IMG/VR virus record: IMGVR_UViG_3300020048_000042
Location: 58,313-122,312 of that record
Length of the DNA: 64,000 nt
Source of the DNA: a virus
Direction: 5' to 3' (one strand)
Shown here: one piece after another, positions 2,540 to 59,314 of the stretch
Layout: every line of letters starts with the position of its first letter
How positions within the stretch are numbered: position 1 is the stretch's first letter
The notes under the pieces: generated by a model
The model's database searches: none
What the model was told of the DNA's origin: nothing
What the model saw: the letters and a program-made list of their open reading frames with translations, nothing else
Translations under genes and position numbers: made by a program

Positions 2540-4447
2540 TTATCTTACAGGACAAGCTCCTCCTTCACAGTCTGCAATATCCATATCTTCTAAATTGATA
2601 GTTTCATCAAAAGCTGATATGGTAATAACATCCTTAGAAAGTTTGTGGAACATTTCTTCAGTAATTTCTTCCAATGGTGCTTGGTCAAAACCATGCTCAT
2701 TATGAAGTAAGAAAGATACTGATTTTACATTAAAGTAGTTAGCTGCTAACCACTCTTTGATTTCATTAAGTTCAGTTTTACGATAGTAAATTGTAACTGA
2801 AACTGCATTGTCAGACCATTCTGTTTGAAGACGTTTGATTACATTCAACTGATCAACAGCTGTCATGTCATTTGCCAATAGTGTTCCTTTTGGAAACTTG
2901 CATGGAAAAGACACAATAATTGTACTGTGATCTTCAGTGCTATCAAAGTTTCTTTGGTATTCTATAGGGTATCCATTCTTTCTACACACATTCACAATAG
3001 GGCTGTCAGAAGCCATACGAATTCTGCGAATGTAATATTGAGAGTATGCTGGATGTGCACCTGATGTAACACCTGCTAACAAACTAAGAGTCCCTGATGG
3101 CTTAACAGTTGTAAGTTTTATTGATGGATTGAATCCTTTTGCTTTACTGTATTCAGTATCATAACTTCTTAGGTAATTGTAACAGTCTGAAAGCCAAGTT
3201 CTTTGTTCTTCTGTTGCCTGTAAGTATCCTGTAACGCCAATTCCCATTCTCATGTTCTTGTGTACAATCTCTTCAGTTTCCTTCACTGAACATTTGATAG
3301 CTAATGAATGCTTATTAATTCTGTAAAGAAGAGTAGCGACTTTCAATAGCTCTTTGTAAGAGTCAATGTTTGGAAGATAGATTTCAGCAAGACAGCATGT
3401 CTCAAAGTTTGCAAGCGATTGTTCAGCACAAGGATTAAAGCCCATTACTTCAGGATCAGGATACTCTATTTCACCTGTTCTACCCATACGTCTTGATGCT
3501 TCAAGGTTAATTAAACCATAAGGTTCACCATTACCCTTGTATCCTTCCCAAAATTCTTCTGGTAACTTTGATATGTCATCACATATAACAGAGTTATTAC
3601 TCATTGCACGCCAGTTAGGAATTCCTCCAAGGTCCCAACGTTTTGCACGTAGAAACTCAAAGTCATCATAATCACCAAGTGCAATCTGTGCTGAACGTCT
3701 AACGTTACCTGCAACTACAATACGTCCAATGATGTTCATGATGTCAAGACAATCAATTGATCTTACTCTTTTGCCAGCTCTAGCATTTAGTATAGTATTG
3801 ATTTCTTCAATTCCCCATACTAAATCTTGTGGACCTGACGCTGTACCACCAAAACCTTTGATGGGAGAACCTTTTGATCTTATAAGATGACATGCATAAG
3901 TAAATCCTTCACCTGTAATGAAAGATGCTTCAAGAACGCGACGCATAAGTTCAACCCATCCTTCTCTTGAATCAGGTACAATGAAATCAGCATCATTTAC
4001 ATCTTTGCGTTCAATCTTTACTTTCTTTAATACTTTTGGAATTTGGTACACATGTTCACGTTGAATGTTAAAACCTACACCAGAACCTAGCATAAGCATT
4101 TCAAATGCCCAAGTAAATGGTCTGATAGGTTGATCACAAACAACAAAGGCACAGTTCTGCAATGATGGAAGTCCTAATCTGTCAACAGTTTTTGTACCTA
4201 ACTGCCACAAGAATCTTCCTGCTACTGTACCTTTTAAATTTGTCATTGTGTAACGAAGTGCTTCTTCATCTTCAGAAGTAAAGCCAACGTTTAATTGAGT
4301 TCTACAAGACTCAATCACTCTTTCAATAGTTTCATGCCACTCTTCAGTTTTCCCATTTTTAGTAGGTCTAGAGTAGGTTCTTTTATAGGTAACGTAACCT
4401 ACAGGCCCCCAAGGAATAATGGTGGGGGTAACATTTGTTTCTGTCAT
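2540..4447 (-). CDS. nrdJ: class II (adenosylcobalamin-dependent) ribonucleoside-triphosphate reductase, monomeric type
   Basis: YKRTYSR, GGRFLW-like AGRFLWQLG, GNVRRSAQI, GFNPCAEQSL (finger-loop N-C-E), TTVKPSGTLS, C-terminal DCEGGACPVR redox pair. Confidence 0.93.
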   Translation of the reverse strand: MTETNVTPTIIPWGPVGYVTYKRTYSRPTKNGKTEEWHETIERVIESCRTQLNVGFTSEDEEALRYTMTNLKGTVAGRFLWQLGTKTVDRLGLPSLQNCAFVVCDQPIRPFTWAFEMLMLGSGVGFNIQREHVYQIPKVLKKVKIERKDVNDADFIVPDSREGWVELMRRVLEASFITGEGFTYACHLIRSKGSPIKGFGGTASGPQDLVWGIEEINTILNARAGKRVRSIDCLDIMNIIGRIVVAGNVRRSAQIALGDYDDFEFLRAKRWDLGGIPNWRAMSNNSVICDDISKLPEEFWEGYKGNGEPYGLINLEASRRMGRTGEIEYPDPEVMGFNPCAEQSLANFETCCLAEIYLPNIDSYKELLKVATLLYRINKHSLAIKCSVKETEEIVHKNMRMGIGVTGYLQATEEQRTWLSDCYNYLRSYDTEYSKAKGFNPSIKLTTVKPSGTLSLLAGVTSGAHPAYSQYYIRRIRMASDSPIVNVCRKNGYPIEYQRNFDSTEDHSTIIVSFPCKFPKGTLLANDMTAVDQLNVIKRLQTEWSDNAVSVTIYYRKTELNEIKEWLAANYFNVKSVSFLLHNEHGFDQAPLEEITEEMFHKLSKDVITISAFDETINLEDMDIADCEGGACPVR

Positions 4448-4614
4448 AATTTAAAAATTGAGGATTAATATTTTTTTTGTGAAGGGCAACAAATATCGTA
4501 ATTTTTCATTTGTGTTGCACTATGGAATAAAACTTTTTTCACTTTATTTCAAAAGTTAAATATAATTCAGATATTTGTGGTATATTATATTGAGGACAGT
4601 GGAGTACAAACTAA

Positions 4615-5412: not shown

Positions 5413-6099
5413 ATGAGCACACTTGACTTATCAAAAATCAAACAGGTTCCATTAAAAGAATCTCAGTACTTAAAAGAAGAAGTAAAGAAACTACAGATTG
5501 TGTTACATCACACTGCTGGTAATTCTTCTGCACCTGCAACAATTAAGATGTGGGACGCTGACGACAGAGGTCGTATAGCAACATGTATTGTAATTTCTGG
5601 TAAGGGTCTTTCAAAAGGCACGTTTGATGGTGAAATTTGTCAAGCATTTTCATCTAAGCATTGGGCTTATCATTTAGGCCTTAAACAAGATGTCTTTAGA
5701 TCACTTGGTGTTCCTTATCGCTCACTTGATCCATTGTGTGTTGCAATTGAAATCTGCAACTGGGGACCATTGACAAACAAGAATGGCAAATACTTTAACT
5801 ATGTAAATAGAGAAGTACCTGTTGATCAAGTTTGTGAGTTGTCTGTTCCATACAAAGGTCACAAATACTATCACGCATATACAGATGCACAAATTGAATC
5901 AGTACGTCAATTATTGATATACTGGAACAAAGTGCATGGCATTCCACTTGACTATAATGAAAAAGACATGTGGAATATTTCTGCAAATGCTCTTAAAGCT
6001 GTGCCAGGAGTATACACTCATAATTCTTACAGAAAAGATAAGAGTGATATTTCTCCACAACCAAAAATGATTGCAATGTTAAAATCCCTAAAATCATAA
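5413..6099 (+). CDS. endolysin, N-acetylmuramoyl-L-alanine amidase (Amidase_2)
   Basis: IVLHHTAG Zn-binding motif, AYHLG, IEICNWG, YTDAQIES, GVYTHNSYRKDKSD. Confidence 0.88.
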   Translation: MSTLDLSKIKQVPLKESQYLKEEVKKLQIVLHHTAGNSSAPATIKMWDADDRGRIATCIVISGKGLSKGTFDGEICQAFSSKHWAYHLGLKQDVFRSLGVPYRSLDPLCVAIEICNWGPLTNKNGKYFNYVNREVPVDQVCELSVPYKGHKYYHAYTDAQIESVRQLLIYWNKVHGIPLDYNEKDMWNISANALKAVPGVYTHNSYRKDKSDISPQPKMIAMLKSLKS

Positions 6100-32764: not shown

Positions 32765-32874
32765 TAGTCATGACAGGATTCAAACCTGTGACCTGAACCT
32801 GATGTATTGCATGCCATGGTAGGCTATCCTTTACATTTTCAGAGGTTCCGCTCTATCAGCTGAGCTACATGACT
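32765..32874 (-). tRNA. tRNA-Phe(GAA)-like gene with 35-nt insert at position 37/38
   Basis: Acceptor AGTCATG/CATGACT, D stem GCTC/GAGC, anticodon stem GAACCT/AGGTTC, loop CT-GAA-A|insert|C, variable AGGTC, T stem ACAGG-TTTGAAT-CCTGT; ends A-CTA rather than A-CCA. Confidence 0.7.
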
Positions 32875-42591: not shown

Positions 42592-42885
42592 CTACTGAGC
42601 TGTTGTTTCATGTGGTTTTAATGCAGTAATTTGATCAACTAGATCATTCACTGCTTTTTCTGACAAGTAACCAATAACATCGTTAGTGATTTCTGTGTCA
42701 TAACAAATCTCCCAATCTGTGTCGTTACTGTACTTAAGCACAGCTAACTCCCACTTTCCTTGCTTACCACCATATGAGAATTGGTGTTGGACAATAGATG
42801 CTCCATATCCATTGTCAGCTTTGTAAAGGTACTGAATACCTGCATTTCTTTCTGTTGACTTAAAAGTCTTAAAATCTGTTGCCAT
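42592..42885 (-). CDS. conserved small phage protein (NGYGAS...SYG...WELAV family)
   Basis: Start ATG 42885 (MATDFKTF); DNGYGASIV..FSYGG..GKWELAVL...DVIGYL. Confidence 0.65.
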   Translation of the reverse strand: MATDFKTFKSTERNAGIQYLYKADNGYGASIVQHQFSYGGKQGKWELAVLKYSNDTDWEICYDTEITNDVIGYLSEKAVNDLVDQITALKPHETTAQ

Positions 42886-43017
42886 GTTGGTTGTTTTTAA
42901 ATGATTTGTCCCCTCTGCACTCAGCATGACGTAACTAGGTTCGTCTTAATGGTCTCCGCTGTCCAAATACTGCTCACCCTTGGGAAGTGAGTTGTGGTGC
43001 ATTAAACAAGTCACCAA

Positions 43018-43299
43018 GTGAATGAAACATATAGATAAAGCTAAAATCAAATACAAAAATAAAGACCTTTCTCTCTGCAAGGGCAAAAGCAAAAACTCAG
43101 ACTTAGTTTGAACATCCAATTGTACACGCATGTACGTAACCTGTATGTCATGTCCTAAGACCTAAAAGAGTTTGAGAGAAAGCGGTGTGGCCAATGGCCT
43201 TTCTGTATATAGTTAGTAAACTATGTTGCTATATCTTTTAAAAATTTCATTCACCTGGCGTAAAGAACAAAGGAATCAGCTTGTGCCTATCCTTTGTTC
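43018..43299 (-). ncRNA. ~240-nt rod-like hairpin plus 10-bp hairpin in 3' region of 43315-44217 gene
   Basis: Nested inverted repeats 43018-27/43245-54, 43033-41/43228-36, 43061-66/43197-202, 43067-75/43174-82, 43110-15/43150-55, apex 43122-43135; separate stem 43265-74/43290-99. Confidence 0.6.
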
Positions 43300-43314
43300 A
43301 CCCAGTAGGTAGTC

Positions 43315-44217
43315 CTAAGACTCCAAAAACATGTCAATGACACTTTGGAATCTAGGATCAACACTGATTCTCAGTGCTGCAGTCTCTTTTGTGAGAGTTT
43401 CGCGTTCAACTTCTGCTTCTTGTTGAGCAGCTCTACGTGCAGATGTCCATGCAGTATAAGCATTGTGATACTCAGAATTGTACTGAGATTCCACTTTGTT
43501 ATACTCATTGAGCATCTCCGCATTAGCTCTAGCAATGCGTGCATTCTCCATAGTCACAAGGTTCTTAACCTTAGCTTTGAAGTAATTCACTCTTTGCTCA
43601 TACTCACGATGAAGCTTTGCCAACTCCTCATGCTTAGAATTAAGCTGAGCAGGAGTGTGATGTTTCACTACTTTGACAGGAGTCTTTTCTCCGTCTTTAA
43701 TAGTAATCCACTCCAAAGAGGCAATCTTAGTGATCTGATCACGTAAGACAGAAAGAATTCCACGCTTGTGGATGAACTGACCAATGTGGGAAGCATAAGC
43801 TTCTTGCTCTAAGTACTCGTTGTACTCAGCATCAGACAGTTGTTTCCAACCCCAATCCTCATCAACAGGATTAAGCGTAGTTATCTCATCAACTTCTACT
43901 CTTATAGGAGCAGGAATGTCATAGACATAACGCATATTCCTAATAGAAGTCAATTCACTATCCTTCGCTTTTAATGCTTCCATTAAAAACGCTTGAGTAG
44001 CGTGTAACTTTGCTTTCTCCATGAGCAACTCATTCACATCAGCAGGAAGAGGCATTCCTTCTTGCTGCTCGTAAGATTCACCTGCAATGGTGATAGACTT
44101 ACTCACGTTGTTCACTGAATCCAGTTGATCAGCAATGTTTTGTGCTCTCTGATTGCATAGGTTGCTAATAGATTGCGCTTGGGACATGCTTAAACCCTTT
44201 GTAGACAAGTTTCTCAT
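43315..44217 (-). CDS. alpha-helical/coiled-coil protein of unknown function flanked by structured RNAs
   Basis: 300-aa ORF (GLSMSQAQSISNLCNQRA...EAYASHIGQFIH...YEQRVNYFKAKVKN...I.VDPRFQ); no catalytic motif recognised. Confidence 0.8.
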   Translation of the reverse strand: MRNLSTKGLSMSQAQSISNLCNQRAQNIADQLDSVNNVSKSITIAGESYEQQEGMPLPADVNELLMEKAKLHATQAFLMEALKAKDSELTSIRNMRYVYDIPAPIRVEVDEITTLNPVDEDWGWKQLSDAEYNEYLEQEAYASHIGQFIHKRGILSVLRDQITKIASLEWITIKDGEKTPVKVVKHHTPAQLNSKHEELAKLHREYEQRVNYFKAKVKNLVTMENARIARANAEMLNEYNKVESQYNSEYHNAYTAWTSARRAAQQEAEVERETLTKETAALRISVDPRFQSVIDMFLES

Positions 44218-44220
44218 AGT

Positions 44221-44880
44221 TCAGTTTTTAGAGATTTATAATTTGATTGAAAAAATTCATTTTGACGACTTGCCTGTGCTAGGAACACAGGACTTTGGGT
44301 TAAATAAGATATGCAATCTTGCAAAAACAAGATTTAAGTAATAGACAAATGTGATACAGTTTCCTACACTGCATTTAGACCGCTGAGTCTTCATTTGAAT
44401 TAAACTGGATTCCACTCCAGTCAGCTAACATTCTCCCAAGTGGAATCTTTGTGGAAGAGAATGGATAATGGCATACCACATATTACTGCTGCGGTCAACA
44501 GGTTCACACTGCCAGATTGCTCTCGTGTATAACACTGCCTAGTTTAAACTAAACTCACATAGCTTTATCAAAACACTATATGTAAAATACCTGATTTTAA
44601 AGTCTGCACTAACTTTGGATTATATCACTGCAAATGATAAATAGCACTGTAAATCTCTTTGCAGGAGAAATACAGAACCCAATAGTAGCCCCACAGGTTT
44701 GTCACTGTTTGCTAACAGTAATGATGGTTAGGTTCTCACCCTAACCTTATCCCCCATTCTGCTATGTTTCAAGACAGACCCAGGGATTGTTCATTATGTA
44801 CTCAGTTGAACTCTGGCCAGTAACTTACTGGATATTTGCCTGGTTAAAGAAAAGGCAACAATACTTCAAAGAAAAAACAG
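44221..44880 (-). ncRNA. ~650-nt hairpin-dense putative large ncRNA / leader
   Basis: No substantial ORF; at least ten stems (e.g. 44273-91, 44315-34, 44405-20, 44429-63, 44540-51, 44704-19, 44726-46, 44817-31), several with GUGAGAA/GUGGAA/GUAGGAA loops on the minus strand. Confidence 0.6.
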
Positions 44881-57679: not shown

Positions 57680-59314
57680 ATGGCAACACCAGTTTTAAAC
57701 AACGGTCTGTTTCTAAGAGATACCAAGTACAAGGTATCATCTCACTTAGACTCATATCACCTTGTGAACATGTTGAAGTCAGCTGAGCCTATGGATTTAG
57801 GACCAGTTGATCTTTGGGCAATGTCACAGAAAGTAGAAATGCCTCTTTACCAAATGTCTTCATTTGGAGGTAAAAACACAATTTTGGTAGACACACCACG
57901 TGGCGAGTACAAGTGGCAAACTCCAATTGTACAGGATTTACCTTACATTACAGAAGATGTTGAAAATACTGCTTCAGTACTTGGTCAAGATGGAACTACT
58001 TTTAAAATCAAACTAAACCGTCGTGTATTTGGACATGGTGACATTGTCACTTATGACAAGTATCGTGGTTTGGAATTGTACGTAACAGCTGATGACATTT
58101 TACCTTCAGCAGATGGTTTCATCTACACAGTTCAGTTGGTAAACAACAACAACAATGCATCATTGGATCACAAATACTTGAAGCCTGGAACTAAGTTCTT
58201 TAGAAAAGGTTCTGCTCGTGGAGAGTATGGTGAAAGATTCTCTGACATTGGTGAATTGTCAAATGGTTTCCGTGAGTACTACAACTTTGTTGGTGGTGCT
58301 GAAGCTCACGTACACTATTCAGTTTCTTCTCGTGCAGAGATGATGTTGAAAGGTGGTTTGAACGCAGACGGTTCAGTTCCTGTAACTGAGATATGGAGAT
58401 CATTTGATCAAAACATGGATCCATCTATCGCAAACATTGACCAAATGTTAGCAGTAATGGGTAAAGAGTACATCAAAAAAGCATATGACAATGGTTCATT
58501 GACACGTTCTTTCTTGACGAAAATGGAAGCTGCTCACTTGACTAAGATTGCTACTGACATTGAGACTTACTTAATGTGGGGACAAGGTGGTCGTATCAAG
58601 CAAGATGGTCCAGATGATATTCGTTTATCTGTTGGACTTTGGGCACAATTGGATAACTCTTTCAAACGTATCTACAACAAATCAGGATTTACTCTTGAGT
58701 TGTTCCGTTCAGAGATATTCAACTTCTTCAATGGAAAAGTTGAGTTCAAAGGACCAGATCCACAACGTCAATTGATTGTTCAAACTGGTATGGCTGGTAT
58801 GAAATTGATCAACGAGGCAATCAAGAAAGAAGCATTTGGTATGGGTACAAGCACTATCCTTAACATGGATAAGAGTGGTGTTAACGCAGTATCTGGTACT
58901 AACGCTATGGACTTGAACTTTGGATTTGCATTTACAAGCTACACAATTCCTTTCTTGGCAAATGTGAAATTTGTAATCAACTCTGCGTTTGACAATGTTC
59001 ATACAAATGACATTGAAAATCCAATCATTGATGGTTTCCCATTGTCTTCTTACAATTTTATTATCTTTGATATCACTGATAACACAAATGACAACATCTT
59101 CTTGTTGAAATTGAAGTGGGATAATGAATTGAAATGGTTCTACCAAAATGGAACTATGGACTACATGGGTCGTTCACAAGGATTCCAGTCTTCTGGTAAC
59201 TTCAATGGATACCGTGTAATGATGACACAAACAATGCCTTCTATTTGGGTGAAAGATCCAACTAAGGTATTGAAGATTGTTATGAGAAACCCAATCACTG
59301 GTGGATCATTCTAA
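57680..59314 (+). CDS. major capsid protein (crAss-like, HK97 fold)
   Basis: 544 aa, strong codon bias, LMWGQGG, GLWAQL, QTGMAG, C-terminal NPITGGSF; position after scaffold. Confidence 0.88.
   Translation: MATPVLNNGLFLRDTKYKVSSHLDSYHLVNMLKSAEPMDLGPVDLWAMSQKVEMPLYQMSSFGGKNTILVDTPRGEYKWQTPIVQDLPYITEDVENTASVLGQDGTTFKIKLNRRVFGHGDIVTYDKYRGLELYVTADDILPSADGFIYTVQLVNNNNNASLDHKYLKPGTKFFRKGSARGEYGERFSDIGELSNGFREYYNFVGGAEAHVHYSVSSRAEMMLKGGLNADGSVPVTEIWRSFDQNMDPSIANIDQMLAVMGKEYIKKAYDNGSLTRSFLTKMEAAHLTKIATDIETYLMWGQGGRIKQDGPDDIRLSVGLWAQLDNSFKRIYNKSGFTLELFRSEIFNFFNGKVEFKGPDPQRQLIVQTGMAGMKLINEAIKKEAFGMGTSTILNMDKSGVNAVSGTNAMDLNFGFAFTSYTIPFLANVKFVINSAFDNVHTNDIENPIIDGFPLSSYNFIIFDITDNTNDNIFLLKLKWDNELKWFYQNGTMDYMGRSQGFQSSGNFNGYRVMMTQTMPSIWVKDPTKVLKIVMRNPITGGSF

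Follow-up and report, generated by a model that had tools for sequence, protein, structure and literature searches.

The stretch of DNA that we analyzed (64,000 nucleotides; the window in what follows) makes up the right-hand end of a virus record of 122,312 bp that is 97% complete. It carries a crAss-type major capsid gene at 57680–59314, and a block of minus-strand genes spans it from about 48 kb down to 6 kb. Two minus-strand ORFs in this block are separated by a gap of 387 nt. The upstream ORF (43315–44217) encodes a mostly helical protein of 300 amino acids without a PHROG or Pfam family, which we call p300; the downstream ORF (42592–42927) is assigned to phrog_4074. In the gap between them lies a structured RNA of about 305 nt on the minus strand (43003–43309). 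Its extent is given by an nhmmer match from 43309 to 43010, by column mapping in an alignment of 52 sequences (A3) and by folding energy, for which RNAfold yields a z-score of −5.47 over the full element on the minus strand. The 5′ end is placed about 6–12 nt past the stop codon of the upstream gene and the 3′ end just past the closing helix.

The RNA is present in a single copy in the 122-kb genome (nhmmer, E ≤ 10). Because this search returns only one copy, we rejected the idea that an upstream unit, consisting of a 330-nt RNA and a Hatchet ribozyme, is a paralogue. A 61-aa ORF (42946–43131) that overlaps the 3′ half of the RNA has no PHROG match, and we treat it as spurious. There is no terminator-like site between the p300 gene and the RNA. 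A small G+C-rich hairpin (CTCAC...GTGAG; 42963–42981 in plus-strand coordinates, on the minus-strand RNA) separates the 3′ end of the RNA from the gene that follows. It is conserved only in the loci L001 and L002 and is possibly a weak terminator or a processing stem. Further away, at 32765–32874 on the minus strand, Rfam finds a tRNA (51 bits) that spans 110 nt, hence one with an insert; by ARAGORN, neither the window nor the whole genome contains a tRNA.

A conserved fold on the gene-sense strand

Using the p300 protein as a query we retrieved 11 loci from IMG/VR, and in all 11 a conserved non-coding stretch lies right after the gene. The stretch can be recognized by blastn even when the proteins are only 53–60% identical. 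Scanning with one motif (TTGCCTTTG, then 8–10 nt, then AGGTCTTTG) yields at least 120 loci; among the 120 listed, an nhmmer profile gives 107 matches, of which about 100 cover the full length. We examined about 150 distinct contigs of related lake phages, and in every one the RNA follows the gene for a 300-aa protein of no known family. The phages in GenBank contain neither a DNA match to the element nor a tblastn match to the protein; hence there is no cultured or named relative. GenBank lists two contigs that carry the module, L136 (JBAZIW010000001.1, 362,763 bp) and L134, under MAGs of Candidatus Paceibacterota and Omnitrophota; they look like phage contigs that were binned into bacterial MAGs.

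The RNA folds into a three-way junction, formed by a closing helix (P0), a 5′ hairpin (H0) and a rod of about 240 nt (H1, H2 and H3 to H6). This consensus structure comes from averaged pair probabilities over A3; RNAalifold on the raw alignment of 70 sequences recovered the outer helices alone. P0 pairs 43302–43305 with 43007–43010 (A3 columns 26–29 and 416–419), with double changes in three of four pairs and 86% of cells paired. In H0 (43265–43299), an internal loop and a 3-bp tip helix (43285–87/43278–80) sit under a conserved ANRA-type loop; all ten stem pairs and all three tip pairs covary, and 94–95% of cells are paired. The outer rod helix H1 joins 43244–43260 to 43012–43028 by 17 bp, of which 16 show double changes (91% of cells paired). 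Between H1 and H2 the 5′ arm is variable (43187–43243). It can be aligned only poorly, its helices (5–7 in A3) are 42–67% paired, and it forms lineage-specific side hairpins, which in the window lie at 43209–43224 and 43189–43199 (in the MFE structure).

Beyond the variable region, H2 pairs 43170–43186 with 43065–43078. The 5′ strand of H2 contains an invariant CCGCU and a 2-nt CG bulge, an invariant AGGUCUUU comes directly after the 3′ strand, double changes affect 8 of 13 pairs and 96.5% of cells are paired. The distal rod (43099–43169) comprises H3 to H6 and a variable apical hairpin (43122–43135); helices 9 and 11 covary and are 83–90% paired. A GAGAUAGAACUC segment that is near-invariant in the distal rod of other clades has been replaced in the clade of this phage, which means that not every conserved element is essential. 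The 10-mer GTCTTAGGAC is found only in this clade, where the GAGAUAGAACUC segment is replaced. In the window it occurs twice on the minus strand (0.05 expected by chance), once within the rod (43152–43161, in H3) and once across the p300 stop codon (43312–43321). The duplication could provide an alternative pairing or a second copy of a processing site.

Over the whole of A3, 82.8% of cells pair, compared to 36–47% when the partners are slid by one to three columns. Both sides have changed in 64 of the 92 pairs, and the covariation score is 0.338 as opposed to about 0.1; none of 500 shuffles reached the observed values. The same holds for 28 sequences of which none is identical to a member of A3. 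Here 87.5% of cells in the supported helices pair, compared to 37–48% in the slid controls.

A first-pass annotation of this DNA had described a long rod-like hairpin with nested helices, and all the helices that it listed are indeed in the sequence. This is true of the perfect 10-bp outer stem (43018–27/43245–54), which is part of H1, of a helix with eight of nine pairs (43033–41/43228–36), of the perfect 9-bp helix now included in H2 (43067–75/43174–82) and of the apical GTACA-N4-TGTAC (43122–35). Two helices given as 6 bp long (43061–66/43197–202 and 43110–15/43150–55) are complete on the minus strand, where they make use of G-U pairs, and contain an A-C mismatch on the plus strand. A further 10-bp stem (43265–74/43290–99) exists as well, yet it is not the separate neighbor it was taken for. 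It is one arm of the same RNA, tied to the rod by the covarying closing helix (43302–05/43007–10). Comparison with shuffled sequences, which the annotation had suggested as a check, gave z-scores of −4.16 on the plus and −5.19 on the minus strand for 43018–43299, with none of 200 shuffles folding as well, and the helices are kept by compensatory changes in relatives. The annotation was also right that this is no terminator: the element is far too large, regular and conserved. Taken together, these results support a functional folded nucleic acid, and the long hairpin forms the core of a non-coding minus-strand RNA that folds over about 305 nt. The earlier reading was thus partly supported; it had not recognized which strand folds, nor had it seen the three-way junction, the hexamer tracks or the obligate link to the protein gene upstream.

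The strand can be determined from the type of mismatch that the helices tolerate. In the supported helices, G-U or U-G pairs outnumber A-C or C-A combinations by 282 to 53 in A3 and by 154 to 54 in the independent set. The excess of G-U over A-C shows that only the gene-sense (minus) strand folds; it excludes a symmetric cruciform and fits an RNA. One could still argue that the element works as DNA, as a cruciform, a replication origin or a retron-like ssDNA template, since the cumulative GC-skew minimum of the window and a strand switch lie only about 4–5 kb away. Two of these ideas, a cruciform and an msd-like hairpin, had been raised in the first-pass annotation. We give a DNA-level element next to no credence. 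A symmetric cruciform is incompatible with the G-U asymmetry, and the RNA always has the same orientation as the flanking genes and tRNAs. A retron was rejected as well, as the 122,312-bp, 97%-complete genome contains no match to a reverse transcriptase (PF00078) anywhere, with positive controls, and the adjacent gene encodes a helical protein of no known family. The suggestion of a dsRNA-like decoy is not supported either: the longest unbroken helix measures about 17 bp, and conservation resides mostly in loops and in single-stranded U-rich tracks rather than in duplex length.

Phased hexamer tracks

The 3′ arm of the rod carries UUUG at an exact spacing of 6 nt, in two tracks of three and five UUUG-NN units. 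Track 1 (43078–43093, minus strand; A3 columns 330–347) lies between H3 and H2 and has three units, the third of which reads CUUG in this phage. Track 2 (43036–43063, minus strand; A3 columns 362–391) lies between H2 and H1, facing the variable side hairpins, and has five UUU(G/A)-NN units. The purine/pyrimidine skew that had been noticed in one arm is real, and the tracks account for it: on the minus strand the 3′ arm is U-rich, and both tracks are unique in the 64-kb window. The pattern of track 1 has one match in the window against 0.13 expected, a number reached by 13 of 100 shuffles and hence not significant alone. The pattern of track 2 likewise has one match, which none of 100 shuffles reached.

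The UUUG positions are near-invariant, with an entropy of 0.34 bit compared to 0.88 bit for all columns, and among close pairs of sequences they are substituted 3.5 times less often than positions elsewhere. No consistent pairing partner is predicted for the tracks. The A-rich 5′ strand offers pairing partners to parts of track 1, which means that the tracks are perhaps not wholly single-stranded. The NN positions have an entropy of 1.09 bit (again compared to 0.88 bit for all columns) and a substitution rate of 0.061 per column, compared to 0.066 in other columns, among pairs of 88–99.5% identity. One NN is an invariant CC.

Repeats of this kind could serve to bind a host factor. The U-rich tracks might titrate a host single-strand RNA binder (S1-like or other), or the rod might mimic a promoter in the way 6S RNA does. 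Each RNA offers eight near-invariant UUUG units, and large internal loops interrupt its rod-like shape. The host is probably a member of the Bacteroidota, judging by the crAss-type capsid and by weak taxon hints in the ESM Atlas that score below the level at which the tool is reliable, and TTTG is the core of the −33 and −7 promoter elements of Bacteroidota. A decoy or sponge, however, leaves the obligate protein gene unexplained, and the RNA matches neither 6S RNA nor any other Rfam family even at E ≤ 10. We consider this explanation quite improbable.

The repeats are also reminiscent of VIPR, a phage system that consists of the Vipr RAMP protein and a vrRNA made of GGY/NN repeats (bioRxiv 10.64898/2026.04.26.720920). 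A vrRNA contains 9–16 tandem YNNGG repeats of 5 nt, in which NN is hypervariable even among close relatives, and the partner protein is a RAMP with an RRM core, a G-loop and a thumb (bioRxiv 10.64898/2026.04.26.720920). By analogy, the NN dinucleotides between the UUUG units could spell a non-contiguous recognition code of a programmable guide. The formal likeness is considerable, as vrRNAs too come from phages and combine a conserved trinucleotide, alternating with NN, with a structured invariant part (bioRxiv 10.64898/2026.04.26.720920). But the NN positions of our RNA are not hypervariable, the period is 6 rather than 5, the motif is UUUG rather than GGY, and the predicted model of p300 appears to lack RRM or RAMP topology and has no Cas5/6/7-like match. 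The RNA is not a member of VIPR and it is probably not a programmable guide; to the guide reading we assign only a very small probability.

Linkage to the p300 gene

The most consistent property of the RNA is its position. Among the matches listed for the RNA motif, a p300 homologue precedes the RNA on the same strand wherever the locus leaves room upstream; searching with the protein, the RNA is present in 80 of 80 loci with room. The distance from the stop codon (TAG in 31 loci, TAA in 19) to the first base of P0 is 0–12 nt in 48 of 50 loci. The RNA stays with the gene even where other genes or 140–600 nt intervene, while the genes downstream of the RNA vary between lineages. The pair is found in crAss-like phages of 122–126 kb, including a second complete crAss-like genome (126 kb), and in complete records of 167, 343 and 373 kb that have no crAss-capsid match. 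Since it is present in different phages with different downstream genes, the pair is kept as a unit. Across unrelated phage lineages we therefore find a conserved, strand-specific fold of about 305 nt with phased repeats that obligately abuts one protein gene.

A search of a database clustered at 90% identity gave 2,570 relatives of p300. The AlphaFold2 model of p300 (pLDDT 89.8) is predicted to consist of helices, two beta-hairpins and a helix of 92 residues, in the order helix, beta-hairpin, helix, helices, beta-hairpin, 92-residue helix, and would thus not have the beta-alpha-beta-beta-alpha-beta order. Searches with the model in Foldseek (PDB and BFVD) and VIA-align wide returned generic likenesses to helical hairpins and coiled coils (Z up to 8.5 over 70–90 residues), plus one uncharacterized phage homologue. 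No Cas5/6/7-type chain is among these matches, lists of a kind that do not exclude a fold. Nothing significant was found in Pfam, PHROGs, NCBIfam or PADLOC, nor in the PDB by sequence and profile searches. In Pfam, MtrB included, p300 has no match at E ≤ 0.01, and 35 family members give weak, chance-level matches at E ≤ 1. The ESM Atlas returns only unnamed clusters, all of which score below the reliable level of the tool. Structure and profile comparisons hence show no recognizable RNA-binding fold. The protein is acidic (pI 5.6; 5.4–6.4 in the family), with a mildly basic stretch at residues 151–240. Its acidity weakens a simple picture in which p300 coats the RNA but does not exclude one.

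The surroundings of the pair are rich in RNA genes. Of 100 loci, 64 have tRNA genes on the same strand no more than 5 kb away; about a dozen loci have one that starts 11–36 nt downstream of the RNA. In seven loci (L022, L031, L035, L050, L053, L108 and L113) ARAGORN reports tRNA-like genes whose anticodon loops are odd (2- or 4-base "anticodons") 11–20 nt after the RNA; in others, ordinary tRNA-Lys or tRNA-Cys genes follow directly. Rfam scans of 30 loci found tmRNA in two, GOLLD together with a group I intron in one and Hatchet ribozymes in five. The tmRNAs lie at 5491–5879 in L010 and at 2569–2988 in L072. In L008 a full-length GOLLD (5519–5933, 306 bits) follows the module at a distance of 1.3 kb, and 4265–4452 is occupied by a group I intron, both within 1.7 kb downstream. 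All five Hatchet ribozymes (in the window, L002, L016, L033 and L040) are upstream of the gene on the same strand, at a distance of 0.35–2.5 kb. The one in the window (RF02678, 81.5 bits; 44589–44725, minus strand) shares a transcription unit with p300, whose start lies about 370 nt further downstream. The module is a frequent resident of phage RNA-gene islands, and what have been called phage "tRNA islands" are broader islands of RNA genes, comprising tRNAs, tmRNA, GOLLD, ribozymes and the RNA described here.

Such company raises the question of whether the RNA acts without the protein. It might be an "ornate" RNA of the GOLLD/ROOL type, possibly self-assembling, with p300 a functional associate rather than a binding partner. 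The RNA shares its ecology and neighborhood with GOLLD and ROOL (bioRxiv 10.1101/2024.12.08.627333), a true GOLLD lies close by in L008, the structure is rich and closed, and p300 is acidic. Against this, GOLLD and ROOL have no obligate protein gene, while here the abutting linkage is 100% in both search directions. Our RNA is also much smaller, has long unpaired repeat tracks instead of pseudoknotted cores and does not match their covariance models. We regard protein independence as distinctly unlikely.

A simpler alternative is that the RNA is purely a cis-acting 3′ UTR without a function in trans. It would shield the p300 mRNA from 3′ exonucleases, mark a processing boundary (for RNase III on H1, or for RNase E, P or Z), or do both. 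A mere cis element of the p300 mRNA would show the same strict adjacency to the gene. The RNA begins 0–12 nt past the stop codon with no terminator in between, and tRNAs follow closely in some loci. RNase III cleaves within a duplex of some 20 bp; the 17-bp H1 and P0 form a candidate target, in which H1 may stack on P0 or H0, and the recurrent Hatchet ribozymes upstream in the same transcription unit suggest a heavily processed transcript. For stabilization or processing, however, tens of nucleotides would be enough, far fewer than an RNA of about 300 nt in which loops are invariant and a three-way junction is combined with eight hexamers in phase. RNase III release, which had also been proposed in the first-pass annotation, would account for the outer helix only and not for about 300 nt of sequence-invariant loops. 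The features of the RNA are moreover kept across lineages in which the protein is only about 50% identical, and the element follows the gene even past inserted genes or 140–600 nt. On this evidence we think an exclusively cis-acting role unlikely.

The explanation that we tentatively prefer, with a confidence that falls just short of even, is that the RNA is a 3′ extension of the p300 mRNA that is probably released and acts together with the protein as a two-part module, most likely an RNP. The linkage, which is 100% in both search directions among loci with room, and the preserved fold lead us to infer joint action of RNA and protein. The minus-strand RNA would be made as a 3′ extension of the p300 mRNA (43315–44217). 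Copies of p300, or a p300 oligomer, would read the UUUG tracks with their period of 6 nt, and the invariant loops and the junction would serve as a scaffold or nucleation site. Release of the protein by the ribosome at the foot of P0 would help loading in cis. The RNA would then probably be separated from the mRNA and, in loci with a tRNA 11–36 nt downstream, trimmed by tRNA-processing enzymes. We infer the ends of the RNA, its processing and its expression from sequence. The target of the module, and this is a guess, may lie in RNA metabolism or translation rather than in DNA; that the module often sits in tRNA/tmRNA/GOLLD islands makes such a target the more likely one.

A more specific form of this two-part module would be a new class of phage RNP: an oligomer of a helical protein arranged on two UUUG-NN tracks in strict 6-nt register, held by a three-way-junction scaffold and acting on the translation or tRNA machinery or on another RNA. 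We see this as possible, although on the unlikely side. If the module is an RNP at all, it is a compact one, consisting of a gene of about 0.9 kb and an RNA of 0.3 kb, that could be expressed and purified in a laboratory strain, without the uncultured host.

Comparison with known systems

Large, strongly covarying RNAs without an assigned function are rare, and RNase P, tmRNA, OLE, GOLLD/ROOL, omega and bridge RNAs each led to new biochemistry. The RNA described here is abundant, with at least 120 loci found by one motif and a partner that has thousands of clustered relatives, and its module spans phage lineages from crAss-like phages of 122 kb to jumbo phages of 373 kb. Rfam 15, with its families for GOLLD, ROOL, 6S, Y RNA/YrlA, tmRNA, RNase P, SRP and group I introns, contains no match to 43000–43320 at gathering thresholds or at E ≤ 10. 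When the isolated RNA from the window and from L005 was compared with Rfam, we obtained only noise of 10–20 bits, in families that differ between the two homologues. Since Hatchet, tRNA, tmRNA, GOLLD and group I intron were found elsewhere in the loci, the method works on these sequences. The text of a study that lists 8,495 unnamed candidate structured RNAs from IMG/VR (PMC10690425) names no such motif. The gene–RNA pair is hence probably an undescribed RNA–protein module; an earlier, unnamed listing of the RNA in that catalogue is possible.

GOLLD and ROOL are RNAs of phages and prophages that are often found near tRNA islands (bioRxiv 10.1101/2024.12.08.627333). Like GOLLD (RF02032) and ROOL, our RNA is phage-borne, common in lake metagenomes, situated within tRNA islands or next to them on the same strand, multi-helical, covarying and without an assigned function. 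Their type is defined by a homo-oligomeric, RNA-only nanocage and a length of 580–800 nt. Our RNA, in contrast, has about 300 nt, no obvious pseudoknotted core, phased hexamer tracks and one protein gene that it obligately abuts, where GOLLD and ROOL have no dedicated protein gene. The always-adjacent gene and the simple, mutable repeat unit also provide an experimental handle that GOLLD and ROOL do not offer.

VIPR is the nearest formal analogue of an RNA with "conserved core plus NN" repeats. Both systems pair a phage protein gene with an adjoining non-coding RNA, both join short phased repeats to an invariant structured part, and ribozymes are present in some loci. Apart from the differences in period, motif and NN variability discussed above, our RNA is a single copy of about 300 nt rather than an array of RNAs of about 100 nt, and its partner is modeled as a helical protein that seems to lack RRM or RAMP features.

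Large structured RNAs encoded beside the gene of a partner protein are known from OLE RNA and OapA, tmRNA and SmpB, and Y RNA and Ro60. In the OLE type, the RNA is co-transcribed with the gene for its protein partner. Our module has no RNA or protein homology to OLE and OapA, and OLE RNA, at about 600 nt, lies upstream of oapA in Bacillota. A link to Ro60 and Y RNA was rejected: there is no TROVE domain in four complete records of carrier phages and no Y RNA in the 30 loci scanned. We also rejected a type III toxin–antitoxin system of the ToxIN kind, in which tandem RNA repeats of about 36 nt precede the gene of a ToxN-family endoribonuclease. Here, there are no long tandem repeats, the RNA is downstream of the gene and PADLOC gives no significant match.

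The RNA resembles 6S RNA in being rod-like, a few hundred nucleotides long and interrupted by large internal loops. Unlike 6S RNA it has an additional 5′ hairpin, a three-way junction, repeat tracks and a linked protein gene, and there is no match to the 6S covariance model even at E ≤ 10. With the RNase III processing hairpins of T7-type phages it shares its place as an intercistronic stem in a polycistronic phage transcript. Those hairpins are single and about 60 nt long, whereas our RNA has several domains in one conserved fold of about 305 nt.

The reading of phased UUUG units has its best mechanistic precedent in TRAP (MtrB), which binds the Bacillus trp leader, although the two systems are unrelated. 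In both cases short units are spaced at 5–6 nt, and in TRAP an oligomeric protein takes up one unit per subunit. TRAP reads 11 (G/U)AG units in a 5′ leader for attenuation, while our RNA presents three plus five UUUG units in a large fold 3′ of the gene. With such units in such a position, and without a Pfam match to MtrB, an attenuation leader of the TRAP type was rejected. The TRAP protein is a beta-sandwich ring, to which the helical p300 is unrelated. If the new RNP class outlined above, possible but unlikely, is real, it would be a phased-repeat RNA–protein machine unrelated in sequence and fold to TRAP, to the RAMPs of VIPR and CRISPR, to Ro–Y RNA and to tmRNA–SmpB.
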